The notes beneath the pieces were generated by a model. That model was not told the origin of the DNA. It saw nothing but the letters and a program-made list of their open reading frames with translations, and made no database searches. A DNA stretch of 64,000 nucleotides from Candidatus Omnitrophota bacterium (GTDB lineage Bacteria; Omnitrophota; Gorgyraeia; Aquiviventales; Aquiviventaceae): positions 6,067 to 70,066 of the forward strand of contig JAHFGV010000005.1 in assembly GCA_023247255.1 (NCBI GenBank), written 5' to 3'. The stretch's first letter is position 1. Every line of letters starts with the position of its first letter. Shown piece after piece: positions 43,587 to 61,435 of the stretch. The position numbers were made by a program, and so were the translations under genes.

Positions 43587-43760
43587 ATGTTTGGGAATAT
43601 TGGGTTTCCAGAGCTGTTGGTGATTTTGTCGATCGTGCTCCTCCTCTTTGGGGCCAAGCGGCTGCCGGAGATTGCGCGTGGCTTGGGGAAGTCGCTCTCT
43701 GAATTCAAGAAGGGACTGAAGGAGATCGAGCACGACGTCAACGATGTCAAGAAGGTCTGA
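43587..43760 (+). CDS. tatA: twin-arginine translocase subunit TatA/E
   Basis: 57 aa [49 protein letters not shown] ggaaggagg. Not in the supplied ORF track because it is under 60 aa. Confidence 0.7.
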
Positions 43761-43766
43761 GCGAAG

Positions 43767-45365
43767 GTGGCGGCTCCGGTCAACCGGCCGATGACGGAAG
43801 CGTTGAGGATGCGTCTCGGTATGCTGATTGCGGTGGTTGCGCTAGGCTCAGGGTGCGCCAAGGAGCCATCCGCAACACTCTCGAGCGCGAAACCGTCTGT
43901 GACCCCGCAGATCGTTGAAATGGGCCGGCGGCTTTACAACAAGCAGTGCGCGGTCTGTCATGGCCCGAAGGGCGCGGGCGACGGCCAGGCAGCTTACCTC
44001 CTCTATCCTAAGCCGCGCGATTTCACACAAAACGAATTCCGACTTGTCTCGACCAGCACGATGCAGGCCACCGATGAAGATCTGTTTCTCACCATTACCC
44101 GTGGGACGCCCGGCTCCGCGATGCCCTCCTGGGAGACGCTGACGTCGGAGCAGCGCTGGGCGTTGGTGTATTACGTTCGCCACCTCACGGGTGCGAGCGA
44201 ATCCATTGATCCAGCCTCAATCATCCACGTCCCTCCAGAGACGCCGAAGACCCCCGAGAGCATCGCGCGTGGCCGCCAAATTTTTGTCCAGGCGTGCGCG
44301 TCCTGCCATGGGCCACAAGGCCGCGGTGATGGGCAGCAGGTCATGGCGGACAACGCCGGATATCCTATCAAGCCACGCGATCTCACCGCAGGCGTCTTTA
44401 AGGGGTCGTCTGAGAGCAACGATTTGTATTACCGAATTGTCGCTGGATTGCCGGGCAGCCCGATGCCAAGTTACGCTGACGTCTACACCGACGAGCAGTT
44501 GTGGGATCTCATCCACTACGTTCAATCGCTCGTACCGTCGGGAGTCGAGGATCGCGTCCGCATGCATGCACGGAGCATCCGCGCCCATCGGGTCAGAGGC
44601 GACATCCCATTAGAACCGACAGCGAAAATCTGGAGCACGAGACAACCGGTCTCTATCGCCCTCACACCATTGTGGTGGCGCGATCACCGAGTCGAAGGGG
44701 TCGAGGTCAAAGCGTTGCACAACGGCAAAGAGCTCGCGCTTCAATTGTCATGGAACGACCAGACGCGTGACAACTCGACCCTCACCCCGCAGGCGTTTTC
44801 CGATGGTGTCGCGGTAGAATTCTCCTTAGAACAGGACCCGCCGTTCTTTGGGATGGGTGACGCAAACGGAGTCGTGCAGATATGGCACTGGAAAGCCTCC
44901 TGGCAGGAGGACCTCAAGGGCTGGCAGGACGTGGAGACCGCCTACCCCAATGCTGCCGTGGATTGGTATCCCGCACAGCGTGACTATCAGCACGGTGAAC
45001 CCTCCGAGGTGAGCCAGTCGAGGACGGCCTCGCAGGACCCACGGTTCATGGGCGGATGGGGAGCGGGCAATCCCCTCTCCGATCCGAATCGAACGTCAGC
45101 GGCTGAGGAAGCGATGGCCAAGGGATTGGGGACGCTGACCTCACGCGCACCTTCGATGCAACGGATCCAAGCGGATGGTCTCTGGCAAGACGGTCGGTGG
45201 CAGGTCGTGCTGCATCGACCGCTTGCGCCCAACGAGGAGGGGGATCTGAGGCTGAAGCCTGGGCAGCAAGTCAGCGCGGCGTTTGCGATCTGGGATGGCC
45301 ATGCCGGGGATCGCAACGGCCAAAAGAGCGTGTCGATTTGGAACATCTTGGAGCTGGAGCGATAG
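43767..45365 (+). CDS. dihaem cytochrome c fused to an NxrC/EbdC-like (DMSO-reductase type II gamma subunit) domain
   Basis: Two CxxCH motifs (CAVCHGPKGAGDGQ, CASCHGPQGRGDGQ) in tandem cytochrome c domains. The C-terminal roughly 250 aa (WWRDHRVEGVEVKALHNGKELALQLSWND ... VQIWHWKASWQ) resembles the ethylbenzene dehydrogenase / NxrC gamma family. Confidence 0.6.
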   Translation: MAAPVNRPMTEALRMRLGMLIAVVALGSGCAKEPSATLSSAKPSVTPQIVEMGRRLYNKQCAVCHGPKGAGDGQAAYLLYPKPRDFTQNEFRLVSTSTMQATDEDLFLTITRGTPGSAMPSWETLTSEQRWALVYYVRHLTGASESIDPASIIHVPPETPKTPESIARGRQIFVQACASCHGPQGRGDGQQVMADNAGYPIKPRDLTAGVFKGSSESNDLYYRIVAGLPGSPMPSYADVYTDEQLWDLIHYVQSLVPSGVEDRVRMHARSIRAHRVRGDIPLEPTAKIWSTRQPVSIALTPLWWRDHRVEGVEVKALHNGKELALQLSWNDQTRDNSTLTPQAFSDGVAVEFSLEQDPPFFGMGDANGVVQIWHWKASWQEDLKGWQDVETAYPNAAVDWYPAQRDYQHGEPSEVSQSRTASQDPRFMGGWGAGNPLSDPNRTSAAEEAMAKGLGTLTSRAPSMQRIQADGLWQDGRWQVVLHRPLAPNEEGDLRLKPGQQVSAAFAIWDGHAGDRNGQKSVSIWNILELER

Positions 45366-45367
45366 CC

Positions 45368-59441: not shown

Positions 59442-59443
59442 CG

Positions 59444-59872
59444 ATGGCCTTTTTGACGCATGACCCCATTTCAGTGACCGAGTGGCACGACATTACTGTT
59501 GATCAGCGCAACGGTGCCTCTGTGGAGTTTCTGGGGATTGTGCGCGGACACGAGGGGAATCGAGCGATCGTCTATCTCGAGTATGAGGCGTATGAGCCGA
59601 TGGCAGAGCGGCTCATCGCCCAGTTTGTTAAGGAAGCTAAAACGCGCTGGCCTCTTCACCAGGTCTACGCGCGTCATCGCTTGGGCCGAGTGGATGTGGG
59701 AGAGATTGCCGTGCTGATCGGCGTCCAGGCGCCACACCGGGACCAAGTGTTTGAAGCGTGCCGCTTCCTCATCGACGCCATCAAACGTGATGCGCCGATC
59801 TGGAAGATAGCCTATGACGCAACCGGCGAAGTCGCCCAGGAATACCATGTCTACGAAGGCCGAAATCACTGA
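59444..59872 (+). CDS. moaE: molybdopterin synthase catalytic subunit MoaE
   Basis: 142 aa, MoaE-like (EFLGIVRGHEGNRAIVYLEYEAYEPMAE). Confidence 0.8.
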   Translation: MAFLTHDPISVTEWHDITVDQRNGASVEFLGIVRGHEGNRAIVYLEYEAYEPMAERLIAQFVKEAKTRWPLHQVYARHRLGRVDVGEIAVLIGVQAPHRDQVFEACRFLIDAIKRDAPIWKIAYDATGEVAQEYHVYEGRNH

Positions 59873-60644
59873 CACAATCGCACACCCAGCGCCTGCAACA
59901 TTAGCAGAAGATCGACTACTTTCAACTGAAGATCGTAAGCTCTCGATCCTTGGGCACCTCGAAGAACTCAGGCGGCGTCTGTGGGTCTGCCTGCTCGCCG
60001 TCGCTGGGGCGTCGGCGGTGAGCTTCACATGGGTCGGGCAACTCATCGAGTGGCTGAAACGGCCGGCTGGTGCGGCATTGCCAAAGCTGGCGTTCTTCAG
60101 CCCTCCTGAGGCGCTCCTCGCCTACATGAAGGTGGCTGTGACGGCGGGGCTGTTCCTTTGCATGCCGGTCGTGCTCTATGAGCTGTGGGCTTTTGTGAAA
60201 CCTGGCCTGAGCCGTCAGGAGGGCCGCTACGGCGTGGCGTTTGTCTGGTGGGGCAGCGTGCTCTTTCTGGCAGGTGGTGCCTTTGCCTATTGGGTACTCC
60301 TGCCTGTATCGCTGAAGTTCCTGCTCGGCTTTGGCGGGGGGACCCTTGAGCCGATCATCTCGATCAGCAAGTACCTGTCGTTCACCGTGGCGGTCATTCT
60401 GGCCTGTGGGATGGTGTTCCAGCTTCCGCTATTGATCTTCCTGCTGGCGAAACTGGATCTGGTGAAGCCGCGCACGCTCCGGAGCAAGTGGCGCCATGCC
60501 GTGGTGGCGATGGTGGTTGCCGCAGCCCTGCTGACGCCGACCACCGATGTTGCCACGATGCTGCTGCTGGTCGTGCCGATGCTCGCACTCTACGAAGTCT
60601 CAATCTGGATCGCGGGCGTTGCAACACCCAAAGGACGGATGTAA
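59847..60644 (+). CDS. tatC: twin-arginine translocase subunit TatC
   Basis: Six-TM TatC-like (LEELRRRLWVCLLAV ... LLTPTTDVATMLLLVVPMLALYEVSIWI). An alternative ATG lies at 59814. Confidence 0.85.
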   Translation: MSTKAEITDTIAHPAPATLAEDRLLSTEDRKLSILGHLEELRRRLWVCLLAVAGASAVSFTWVGQLIEWLKRPAGAALPKLAFFSPPEALLAYMKVAVTAGLFLCMPVVLYELWAFVKPGLSRQEGRYGVAFVWWGSVLFLAGGAFAYWVLLPVSLKFLLGFGGGTLEPIISISKYLSFTVAVILACGMVFQLPLLIFLLAKLDLVKPRTLRSKWRHAVVAMVVAAALLTPTTDVATMLLLVVPMLALYEVSIWIAGVATPKGRM

Positions 60645-61435
60645 TGGCAGCCGGAGTGACTGGAATCATCCTGGCAGGGGGTGAGAGCCGGCGCATGGGC
60701 CGGAACAAAGCGTTCCTGCCGTGGGGAGACACCACGCTCATCGAACATCTGCTTGAGCGGCTTAAGCCCGTGACGGATGAGCTGATCGTGGCGGTGAAGG
60801 ATGCGCGGGCGTTCCGGAATCTCAAGGCGAGGGTCGTGGAGGATTGCGTGCCGGATGCGCATGCGCTCGGCGGGCTTTACACCGGTTTGCGGACGGCATC
60901 GCATGAGCTGTGCTTCGTGTGTGGATGCGACGCGCCGTTCGTCAGCCCAGGACTGGTGTCTGCGCTGGCCGGACTCAGTGACGGCCATGATCTTGTCATC
61001 CCTCGGAGCCCACGCGGACTCGAGCCGCTTCACGCAGTCTATGCACGCTCATCGTCGCTGCCGGCGATCGAATGGCAACTACGGCGGCAGGTGTGGGATC
61101 TGCTGGTTCTGGTCTCGCGGCTTCGCGTGCGCATCGTGGAAGGCGAGGCGCTTCGGCGGATCGATCCGGCGGGACGCTGCTTCGTGAACCTCAACACCGA
61201 GGCGGACTACGCGATGGCGGAGGCCGTGAGGGTCAGACTTGCGCGGCGCGGGCAAGCAGCGGATGAGAGGTCAGCAGCGCGATCCAGACGCGACGAGCCT
61301 CCCTGCACGCCAGGCGTTTGGCCGCAACCTGTTCCTTCAAGGTCAGCAGGGATGTTTGGGAAGCTTCGGAGAGGGTCTCGCGCAATCGGCGGTACTCCTT
61401 CTCCCAGCGTTCCCATTCGTACAGGGCGGCCTTGA
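60644..61435 (+). CDS. mobA: molybdenum cofactor guanylyltransferase MobA (C-terminal extent uncertain)
   Basis: MAAGVTGIILAGGESRRMGRNKAFLP ... typical MobA N-terminus. The ORF runs about 200 nt into the convergent desaturase gene. The real functional end is probably near 61250. Confidence 0.65.
   Translation: MAAGVTGIILAGGESRRMGRNKAFLPWGDTTLIEHLLERLKPVTDELIVAVKDARAFRNLKARVVEDCVPDAHALGGLYTGLRTASHELCFVCGCDAPFVSPGLVSALAGLSDGHDLVIPRSPRGLEPLHAVYARSSSLPAIEWQLRRQVWDLLVLVSRLRVRIVEGEALRRIDPAGRCFVNLNTEADYAMAEAVRVRLARRGQAADERSAARSRRDEPPCTPGVWPQPVPSRSAGMFGKLRRGSRAIGGTPSPSVPIRTGRP

Follow-up and report, generated by a model that had tools for sequence, protein, structure and literature searches.

In which direction does a nitrite oxidoreductase (NXR) work when it is encoded by a bacterium that belongs to none of the recognised nitrite-oxidising lineages? 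NXR produces almost all of the nitrate on Earth, and the same clade of enzymes also runs backwards as a nitrate reductase. The question is raised by a 64,000-nt (64-kb) stretch of an Omnitrophota genome, taken from a metagenome contig and referred to here as the window, in which a block of about 18 kb (positions 43587-61435) carries the genes of an NXR-like molybdoenzyme together with genes for molybdenum cofactor (Moco) synthesis and twin-arginine translocation (Tat). Judged by its sequence, the catalytic subunit is a true NXR-type, periplasmic enzyme of the kind found in Nitrospira, Nitrospina and anammox bacteria. Its genomic context suggests that its most likely role, with a probability of roughly 60%, is anaerobic respiratory reduction of nitrate to nitrite.

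Genes were identified as open reading frames (ORFs) together with Pfam and NCBIfam scans of the window proteins. These scans confirmed, with minor corrections, the gene list of an earlier note on this DNA: all of the genes that it named are present, and all are on the + strand. The unidirectional character of the block is true but nothing special, as nearly every gene between positions 76 and 61435 is on the + strand, whereas the linkage of the enzyme genes with the Moco and Tat genes is real.

The catalytic subunits are of the NXR type

The gene for the alpha subunit (45368-48820) encodes a protein of 1150 amino acids (aa) whose N-terminus, MYLTRRQFLKLSGATG..., begins with MYLTRRQFLK, a twin-arginine signal. 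Reference alpha, beta and gamma subunits were PDB chains (Kuenenia 7B04, PcrA, EbdA and E. coli NarG); ClrA, SerA and archaeal pNar were not among the alpha subunits compared. Against NxrA of Kuenenia stuttgartiensis (7B04_B), the alpha subunit aligns end to end with 1848 bits and 65.5% identity over 1146 aa, whereas its scores against the other solved relatives are 185 bits for PcrA, 160 bits for EbdA and 96 bits for E. coli NarG. These scores bear out the claim of an NXR-like periplasmic enzyme and, in answer to the check on grouping that had been proposed, place alpha closer to NxrA than to Pcr, Ebd and Nar as represented by PcrA, EbdA and NarG. For comparison, Chicano et al. report that Kuenenia NxrA is 66% identical to that of Scalindua, about 60% to those of nitrite-oxidising bacteria (NOB), 40% to that of Nitrotoga, and about 20% to Nar and Ebd (PMC8387239).

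Conservation extends to the active site. Residues C67, N70, D71, C75, C115 and D275 of Kuenenia NxrA (PMC8387239) are all retained in the window protein, within the motifs CSPNDTHAC, PRQC (the cysteine) and TWHGDQAPGH. Of these, C67, D71, C75 and C115 form the 3Cys/1Asp FS0 cluster, N70 faces the substrate, and D275 ligates molybdenum. The iron-sulfur beta subunit, NxrB (49819-51057, 412 aa), scores 625 bits against Kuenenia NxrB, with all four cysteine groups (FS1-FS4) identical; it begins with MPKVFNWQLG and has no signal peptide, consistent with hitch-hiking export alongside alpha.

A membrane nitrate reductase of the NarGHI type was ruled out by three observations: the NCBIfam narG and narH equivalogs reach only 129.8 bits (cut-off 1084) and 180.5 bits (cut-off 524), the alpha subunit carries a Tat signal, and Pfam scans found no NarI-like gene in the block. 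Alternatively, the substrate might be chlorate, perchlorate, selenate or an organic compound, as for members of the type II dimethyl sulfoxide (DMSO) reductase family that have a soluble haem-b gamma subunit. An EB_dh-type gamma subunit and a type II chaperone, both encoded in the block, are indeed common to Pcr, Clr, Ser, Ddh and Ebd, and NCBIfam reaches only generic 'DMSO_red_II' subfamily models with scores below their cut-offs; the NCBIfam EbdA model gives 168 bits for a cut-off of 2000. However, PcrA and EbdA match tenfold more weakly than NxrA does, and the substrate-facing Asn70 is conserved where EbdA has Ile (PMC8387239). A change of substrate is unlikely because alpha remains 65% identical, over 1146 residues, to an enzyme whose activity is proven, and this alternative is extremely improbable.

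A gamma subunit fused to a dihaem cytochrome c

Immediately upstream of nxrA, the gamma subunit gene (43767-45365, 532 aa) combines a dihaem cytochrome c with an EB_dh haem-b domain. The N-terminal half of the protein scores 170 bits against the Kuenenia dihaem cytochrome Kustc0457 (6H5L_B) and the C-terminal half 108 bits against Kuenenia NxrC (7B04_C), matches that, with the Pfam domains, uphold the cytochrome c-NxrC fusion previously described. Two CxxCH motifs are present, and the haem-b ligands are kept, with GMGD and NGQKS aligning with M155 and K305 (Met/Lys) of Kuenenia NxrC. The fusion of cytochrome c and haem-b domains is conserved in 60 of the related loci described below, and the same architecture has been recorded in Nitrospina under the name 'alt_NxrC' (PMC3578206).

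The N-terminus of gamma is a Sec-type signal that ends in a lipobox-like LGSGC. The cysteine is found at the same place in the gamma subunits of many relatives, others having plain signal peptides, and the window protein is probably lipid-anchored. A Sec- or lipoprotein-type signal implies that gamma is exported separately from the Tat-exported NxrAB, and its c-type haems require periplasmic haem-c attachment, for which ResB and CcsA are encoded upstream (36270-39709; Pfam).

Accessory proteins of the enzyme operon

The enzyme operon is probably headed by a gene for an XRE-type helix-turn-helix (HTH) regulator (43309-43581; Pfam HTH_31/HTH_3), overlooked by the earlier note, that ends 5 nt before tatA and occupies the same position in the related loci L082, L084, L088, L005 and L039. 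The tatA gene (43587-43760, 57 aa; Pfam TatA_B_E, 72.7 bits) precedes the gamma subunit gene. Accessory genes had also been mentioned, and they are present; those that had been left unnamed encode a DUF2490 protein, u94, u315, a NapF-like ferredoxin, u93, an S-adenosylmethionine (SAM)-dependent methyltransferase and a TauE/SafE-family permease, the last three belonging to the cofactor genes discussed in the next section.

Two of these families, u94 and u315, recur with the enzyme itself. The u94 gene (49542-49826) encodes a conserved, three-helix cytoplasmic protein of 94 aa, and its stop codon overlaps the start of nxrB. Structural comparison gave no informative match for u94, and a word-based protein search reached close relatives only (at least 55% identical). 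Downstream of nxrB is a gene for a NarJ/TorD-type chaperone (51088-51867; Pfam Nitrate_red_del; NCBIfam type II DMSO reductase chaperone, 80 bits), followed by u315 (51854-52801), which encodes a conserved cytoplasmic protein of 315 aa with an HExxH-like motif and a C-terminal four-cysteine zinc ribbon, suggestive of a zincin-like protein. The u315 family comprises 1210 clusters at 50% identity, all of about 300-330 aa, is matched by no Pfam or NCBIfam model, and follows narJ in the NXR-type clusters examined here. Neither u94 nor u315 has a signal peptide, from which roles in cytoplasmic maturation are inferred. In Kuenenia, two unannotated genes (kustd1701/1702) lie between nxrA and nxrB (PMC6423088), and the conserved NXR set described by Lücker et al. 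includes a 'putative zinc finger protein' in addition to a TorD-like chaperone (PMC3578206). By analogy, the Nitrospina zinc finger protein may correspond to u315.

The operon ends with a gene for a NapF/NapG-like ferredoxin (52798-53172; Pfam Fer4_10; NCBIfam NapG, NapF and RnfB) that bears a vestigial twin-arginine motif (RRTFL) and is conserved in Omnitrophota loci. By comparison, the DUF2490 gene (48814-49521; Pfam DUF2490, 86.9 bits) is an insert between nxrA and u94, found in the window and in its closest relative L082/L083 (L082 6845-7549) and absent from L084 and from all 80 of the GTDB loci compared. The idea that it is unique to the window was rejected, as the closest relative (92% NxrA identity) carries one; an unrelated 117-aa ORF occupies the position in L084. 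The DUF2490 protein has a signal peptide, and a PDB sequence search with it was empty. It is predicted to be an outer-membrane barrel, and may be an outer-membrane anion channel.

A riboswitch separates the cofactor genes from the enzyme genes

The block had been regarded as a single co-regulated unit, a view that overlooked a Moco riboswitch, which lies at 53228-53385, past the ferredoxin gene and ahead of u93/moaA. A search with the Rfam covariance model RF01055 (gathering score 36) matched the full model with 61.6 bits (E 2e-12), and the riboswitch is found at the same position in the relatives L004, L005, L011, L018 and L088, with 50-66 bits. Since the riboswitch lies inside the block, it divides it into two regulatory units, an enzyme operon (43309-53172) and a Moco/tatC operon (53451-61435). 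The Moco/tatC operon would be under cofactor feedback, as in classical moaA operons, with the enzyme half controlled separately. Consensus scans of positions 42200-62100 gave six promoter-like sites (4.8 expected) and 13 terminator-like sites (14.8 expected); both are at background, and neither result was used.

The first ORF after the riboswitch is u93 (53451-53732), which encodes a small Cys-rich protein of 93 aa with no Pfam hit. A 71% identical ORF exists in L088, and u93 was found only in these two loci; it is absent from L004, L005, L011 and L018, where moaA directly follows the riboswitch. In the window, moaA (53889-54875; Radical_SAM and Mob_synth_C) is followed by moaC (54872-55348; Pfam MoaC, 167 bits), a mog/moaB-type molybdopterin adenylyltransferase gene (about 55541-56068, the start being that of the public gene call; MoCF_biosynth), the SAM-dependent, UbiE-like methyltransferase gene (56061-56705; Pfam Methyltransf_11/25), and the TauE/SafE-family permease gene (56707-57440; Pfam TauE). 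The remaining genes are moeA (57437-58690; MoeA_N, MoCF_biosynth and MoeA_C), mobB (58690-59172; Pfam MobB), moaD (59169-59441; Pfam ThiS, with a C-terminal GG), moaE (59444-59872; Pfam MoaE), tatC (59814-60644; Pfam TatC, 218 bits) and mobA (60641-61435; Pfam NTP_transf_3, NCBIfam MobA models). TatA and TatC were said to bracket the block, but tatC is the penultimate gene and mobA closes it. The MobA protein has a C-terminal low-complexity extension of about 60 aa, and its gene shares about 200 nt with the 3' end of a fatty-acid desaturase gene that runs convergently (61233-62384, - strand); the orthologue in L083 is 205 aa.

The block thus encodes MoaA, MoaC, MoaD, MoaE, Mog/MoaB, MoeA, MobA and MobB. 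To say that it provides every step in the synthesis of the bis-molybdopterin guanine dinucleotide (bis-MGD) cofactor is an overstatement, as Pfam and NCBIfam scans of the block find no MoeB, no sulfur donor, and no ModABC molybdate uptake system; the absence of moeB had been remarked upon, correctly. The sole transporter in the block is the TauE-family permease, and its gene is frameshifted. In a tblastn comparison with the L082 orthologue, the match is split into two frames near 57265-57271, and the restored frame would end at 57440, overlapping the start of moeA; the TauE proteins of relatives are 247-251 aa. The 205-aa gene call is identical on an independent ENA contig, and the frameshift could represent either a pseudogene or a shared assembly error. 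The methyltransferase is outside the canonical Moco pathway, and is also found in L005, L039 and L088.

With a full-length match to the RF01055 aptamer directly upstream of Moco genes, the arrangement is the classical one, as in the E. coli moaABCDE operon. The window's operon differs in the addition of tatC, the TauE-family permease and the methyltransferase, and in its position directly downstream of the operon for the client enzyme.

Distribution and descent of the cluster

At least 590 GTDB species encode a relative of NxrA, and all window proteins were compared by tblastn with the best 80 of these, in which NxrA identity is 72-87%; the further relatives L082, L083, L084, L087, L088, L089 and L090 were examined beside the 80 loci. 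The closest named homologues are from Omnitrophota metagenome-assembled genomes (79-87% identity). In addition to Omnitrophota, the best 80 include Planctomycetota, Methylomirabilota, Binatia, Acidobacteriota, Desulfobacterota, Myxococcota, Gemmatimonadota, Verrucomicrobiota, Sumerlaeota, Hydrogenedentota, Eiseniibacteriota and Nitrospinota.

Almost all of the 80 loci, from more than 12 phyla, share a core of six genes: the fused gamma subunit, nxrA, u94, nxrB, narJ and u315. In ten Omnitrophota loci (L004, L005, L006, L008, L011, L017, L018, L039, L082 and L088), this core is extended by the NapF-like ferredoxin, tatA and Moco/Tat genes in the order moaA-moaC-mog-(methyltransferase)-tauE-moeA-mobB-moaD-moaE-(tatC)-mobA. 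Because the layout of enzyme, riboswitch and Moco/Tat genes recurs in Omnitrophota relatives, the supercluster is the normal state of the lineage rather than an unusually complete set, as had been thought. In one of the Methylomirabilota loci, L027, a second, divergent NXR/Nar-like set lies directly downstream of the first (alpha 43-44% and beta 50% identical; the gamma match covers part of the query).

In a bootstrapped neighbour-joining tree of NxrA from the closest loci and Kuenenia, which left out Nitrospira, Nitrospina, Thermogutta and pNar, the window protein is in an Omnitrophota clade (100/100), next to L002 (97/100). Kuenenia is outside the fused-gamma group and sister to it (72/100), and sub-clades largely follow phyla. 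The suggestion of a mobile module fares poorly in light of this fully supported clade: no integrase, transposase, tRNA, or bordering direct or inverted repeat flanks the block, and its guanine-plus-cytosine (GC) content matches that of the flanks. The pattern suggests an ancient transfer between phyla, followed by vertical descent, and a recently mobile island does not fit.

The only mobile-looking element is some 20 kb upstream, at a tRNA-Asp gene. A 38-nt direct repeat (95% identical) marks both ends of this 2.7-kb element (21069-23830), with the right copy falling inside the tRNA-Asp gene (23769-23842). The element contains a DDE transposase gene (21135-22136) and resembles a small insertion by which the 3' end of the tRNA was duplicated. 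A second exact repeat, of 20 nt, is found at 22179 and 24102.

Respiratory genes upstream of the enzyme operon

A series of + strand genes at 26853-39709 (identified by Pfam and haem motif counts) encodes multihaem cytochromes, a 686-aa secreted protein, a Rieske protein, a cytochrome b, and the System II proteins ResB and CcsA; hemA is also among the upstream genes of this strand. The series starts with an 8-haem cytochrome (26853-28118), followed by the 686-aa secreted protein, which ends in Phe. The Rieske (30062-30634) and cytochrome b (30639-31709) genes form a pair 13-17 kb upstream of the enzyme. After cytochrome b, and before position 35944, come 9-, 6- and 7-haem cytochromes, the last of which is fused to a b561 domain. 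Genes for feoB and a DtxR-type regulator lie between the cytochrome genes and the nxr operon. The upstream respiratory genes are likely functional partners of the enzyme, and the region 26853-35944 may encode a conduit of porin and cytochrome that is coupled to a Rieske/cytochrome b complex of the anammox kind.

Alternatively, the enzyme could be put to a different use, either as a bidirectional redox valve for nitrite disposal or the balance of reducing power, or as a terminal reductase for extracellular electrons delivered via multihaem cytochrome and putative porin, in both instances with no dedicated energy-conserving role. The 8-haem cytochrome and 686-aa protein are just upstream of Rieske/cytochrome b, feoB and the DtxR-type regulator lie between cytochromes and nxr operon and share a palindrome with it (see below), Kuenenia NXR catalyses both reactions (PMC8387239), and metal-reducing cytochromes have been reported in Omnitrophia (PMC10066038). 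However, neither Pfam nor the PDB has a match for the 686-aa protein, such that its assignment as a porin is a guess, and it is tied to NXR by proximity and strand alone. In addition, so elaborate a set of maturation genes dedicated to the enzyme points to a role of importance in respiration. A use of this kind is quite improbable.

In relatives, Rieske/cytochrome b genes adjoin the cluster in four loci of Planctomycetota and Verrucomicrobiota (L055, L056, L062 and L072). In Omnitrophota relatives, other neighbours encode a NirA-like sirohaem reductase, Rrf2, Crp, several hemerythrins, NnrS, MOSC, HemN, NrdD and a Psr/NrfD-type molybdoenzyme (L084 6188-7903; L087 7808-8200 and 19484-23471; L088 1-7772; L089 5122-6348 and 14600-15082; L090 12047-17588). 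Judged by gene content, the neighbourhood in relatives is of an anaerobic, nitric oxide (NO)-stress type, with typical companions of anaerobic nitrate and nitrite metabolism.

Further upstream, positions 1-19023 of the window include pyrD, pyrF and a gene for a phosphoribosyltransferase; these are followed by nuoJ, K, L, M and N, for the membrane arm of complex I, and by the operon of an F-type ATP synthase. All of them run in the same direction as the nxr block. Most of the window shows positive GC skew, and upstream of it on the source contig are a PilZ gene and a large ORF.

A candidate operator shared with iron and haem genes

An 8-4-8 palindrome, TCCATGAC-N4-GTCATGGA, overlaps the start codon of the HTH gene (43306-43328) and is a candidate operator. 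A second perfect copy (39818-39840) is upstream of feoB, a near-copy with mismatches (25041-25063) is upstream of the hemA/cytochrome cluster, and weaker copies are found at 24425, 24882, 53168 and 62468. A Crp/Fnr-family regulator gene (24117-24875, + strand; Pfam cNMP_binding and HTH_Crp_2) is flanked by copies of the palindrome. The window has seven matches where 2.97 are expected, a number reached in 1 of 100 shuffles; this enrichment is only suggestive.

Among relatives, perfect ATGAC-N4-GTCAT sites occur 1.7-2.3 kb upstream of nxrA in seven loci from several phyla (L005, L031, L038, L045, L068, L084 and L088). Five of 11 such sites fall within the 5.7% of sequence that is 1.3-2.6 kb upstream of nxrA, with two more contributed by L084 and L088. 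The half-site spacing is that of the FNR box, and the palindrome may mark a shared regulon of haem synthesis, iron uptake and NXR.

Comparison with characterised systems

The window enzyme belongs to a known family, its gene layout is the usual one among its relatives, and clusters of NXR-like genes have previously been reported from phyla that do not nitrify. The closest characterised system is NXR-ABC of K. stuttgartiensis (PDB 7B04; kustd1700/1703/1704), which shares the logic of the Tat signal, the Asp ligand to molybdenum, Asn70, FS0, the Cys groups of beta, the Met/Lys haem b, and small unannotated genes between nxrA and nxrB (PMC6423088). The two differ in gene order (gamma-A-x-B-J in the window, A-x-x-B-C in Kuenenia) and in gamma, which in the window bears a lipoprotein-type signal and is joined to a dihaem cytochrome c, a part missing from canonical NxrC. 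The window also lacks the NXR-T tubule subunit, bd-like or cupredoxin genes, and an anammoxosome, and has Moco and Tat genes attached. The physiological direction, as read from gene context, is probably opposite to that of Kuenenia NXR.

Nitrospina gracilis and Nitrospira have enzymes of the same periplasmic NXR clade, and by description the Nitrospina gamma-like proteins with 1-3 haem-c sites plus haem b resemble the window protein (PMC3578206). In Nitrospina, the nxrABC operon has a plain haem-b NxrC, and the alt_NxrC genes are elsewhere; in the window, no gamma subunit other than the fused form is encoded, and its gene is placed ahead of nxrA, as the first gene of the enzyme subunits' run in the operon. 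Moreover, both are aerobic autotrophic nitrite oxidisers, unlike the anaerobic nitrate reducer favoured here.

By analogy, a working model proposed for the window is the NXR-clade 'NarGH' of Thermogutta terrifontis, which is extracytoplasmic, lacks NarI, and is linked to a bc1 complex (PMC5673643, PMC10732223). The Thermogutta order is G-H-'I'-TorD, with no fused dihaem gamma reported, and the Rieske/cytochrome b genes of the window are 13-17 kb upstream rather than adjacent to the enzyme.

Haloarchaeal pNar, likewise outside the cytoplasm and without NarI, also has Rieske/cytochrome b partners. In the window, alpha has a Tat signal, and the Rieske/cytochrome b genes are on the same strand, but at the distance given above.

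Direction of catalysis

In the assembly proposed for the enzyme, NarJ would hold apo-NxrA until bis-MGD is inserted, with the NapF-like ferredoxin, u94 and zincin-like u315 assisting cytoplasmic maturation, after which NxrAB would be exported via TatA/TatC. The gamma subunit would obtain its c-haems from the upstream-encoded ResB/CcsA. If the enzyme is a respiratory nitrate reductase, electrons would pass from quinol to the Rieske/cytochrome b complex, where energy is conserved, and on to the dihaem-c entry port, dispensing with a NarI-type quinol oxidase.

Nitrate reduction is favoured because of the Rieske/cytochrome b genes upstream, accompanied on that strand by 6- to 9-haem cytochromes, hemA and the Ccs system, the FNR-box-like operator, and the NO-stress and anaerobic neighbours of relatives; the lack of a membrane haem-b, quinol-oxidising anchor in the cluster was also counted in its favour. 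There is precedent in the cultured T. terrifontis, which reduces nitrate with an NXR-clade enzyme encoded beside a bc1 complex (PMC5673643, PMC10732223), and in the finding that Kuenenia NXR works in both directions in vitro (PMC8387239). A survey of the phylum reads the respiratory oxidoreductases of Omnitrophota as reductases (PMC10066038), and in surveys covering Omnitrophota, Elusimicrobia and one Armatimonadetes genome, such genes are taken as evidence of nitrate respiration or as doubtful NXR (PMC10066038, 10.1101/765248, PMC4821891).

Several points weigh against a nitrate reductase. The best-characterised homologue, Kuenenia NXR, oxidises nitrite in vivo, and nitrite oxidisers have in common with the window enzyme an FS0 with an Asp ligand, a Met/Lys haem b of high potential, and wiring through cytochrome c. 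No nitrite reductase or electron donor system specific to nitrate respiration is found in the 64-kb window, and a terminal oxidase or CO2-fixation pathway could be encoded outside of it. The anaerobic and NO-stress neighbours belong to relatives and not to the window's genome, and the N-terminal Cys cluster of FNR, to whose box the operator was likened, is missing from the Crp-family protein.

The rival reading is a nitrite oxidase in vivo, which would oxidise nitrite in the periplasm. Electrons would leave via NxrB, haem b and then the pair of c-haems for a terminal oxidase whose genes lie outside the window, with some driven uphill via Rieske/cytochrome b and complex I; the lineage would then be an unrecognised nitrite oxidiser. 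The identity to Kuenenia NxrA (65.5%) exceeds the approximately 60% between Kuenenia and true NOB (PMC8387239), the FS0/active-site signature is identical, and the periplasmic, cytochrome c-coupled design is that of Nitrospira and Nitrospina, including the haem-c plus haem-b 'alt_NxrC' of the latter (PMC3578206). Complex I, ATP synthase and Rieske/cytochrome b are in the same window, and nitrite oxidation has been proposed by the authors who described similar Planctomycetota clusters (PMC10732223). Yet the window has no terminal oxidase or carbon-fixation genes, the clusters of relatives are beside NrdD and HemN (anaerobic) and NnrS, hemerythrin and Rrf2 (NO stress), and the family is present in at least 590 species, spread over a large number of phyla that are heterotrophic or anaerobic. 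Furthermore, the Thermogutta NXR-clade enzyme serves nitrate reduction (PMC5673643, PMC10732223), and the owner of one Armatimonadetes genome that carries such a cluster was considered an unlikely nitrite oxidiser (PMC4821891). Nitrite oxidation by the window enzyme, although the name NXR implies it, is thus doubtful, and anaerobic nitrate respiration remains the preferred reading.

Implications

The locus alone leaves knowledge of the nitrogen cycle unchanged. It is, however, a clean and complete example of the fused-gamma form, inherited in Omnitrophota with a riboswitch-controlled operon for cofactor synthesis and export. What the present comparison adds is the conserved riboswitch split, the candidate operator, the widespread six-gene core, and the two unannotated accessory families. 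The fused-gamma NXRs occur in at least 590 GTDB species, from Omnitrophota and at least 12 further phyla that are uncultured or do not nitrify. That they are nitrite oxidases in vivo is unlikely; if true, a large number of nitrate producers would be hidden in lineages not known to oxidise nitrite, and u94 and u315 would be part of a universal NXR maturation kit. NXR homologues at 72-87% identity are encoded by hundreds of species of phyla not known to nitrify, and whether a metagenomic survey calls them 'nxr' or 'nar' is almost arbitrary. The context clues described here, namely Rieske/cytochrome b genes, an FNR-like operator, and NO-stress or anaerobic neighbours, are usable for deciding the direction of catalysis genome by genome.

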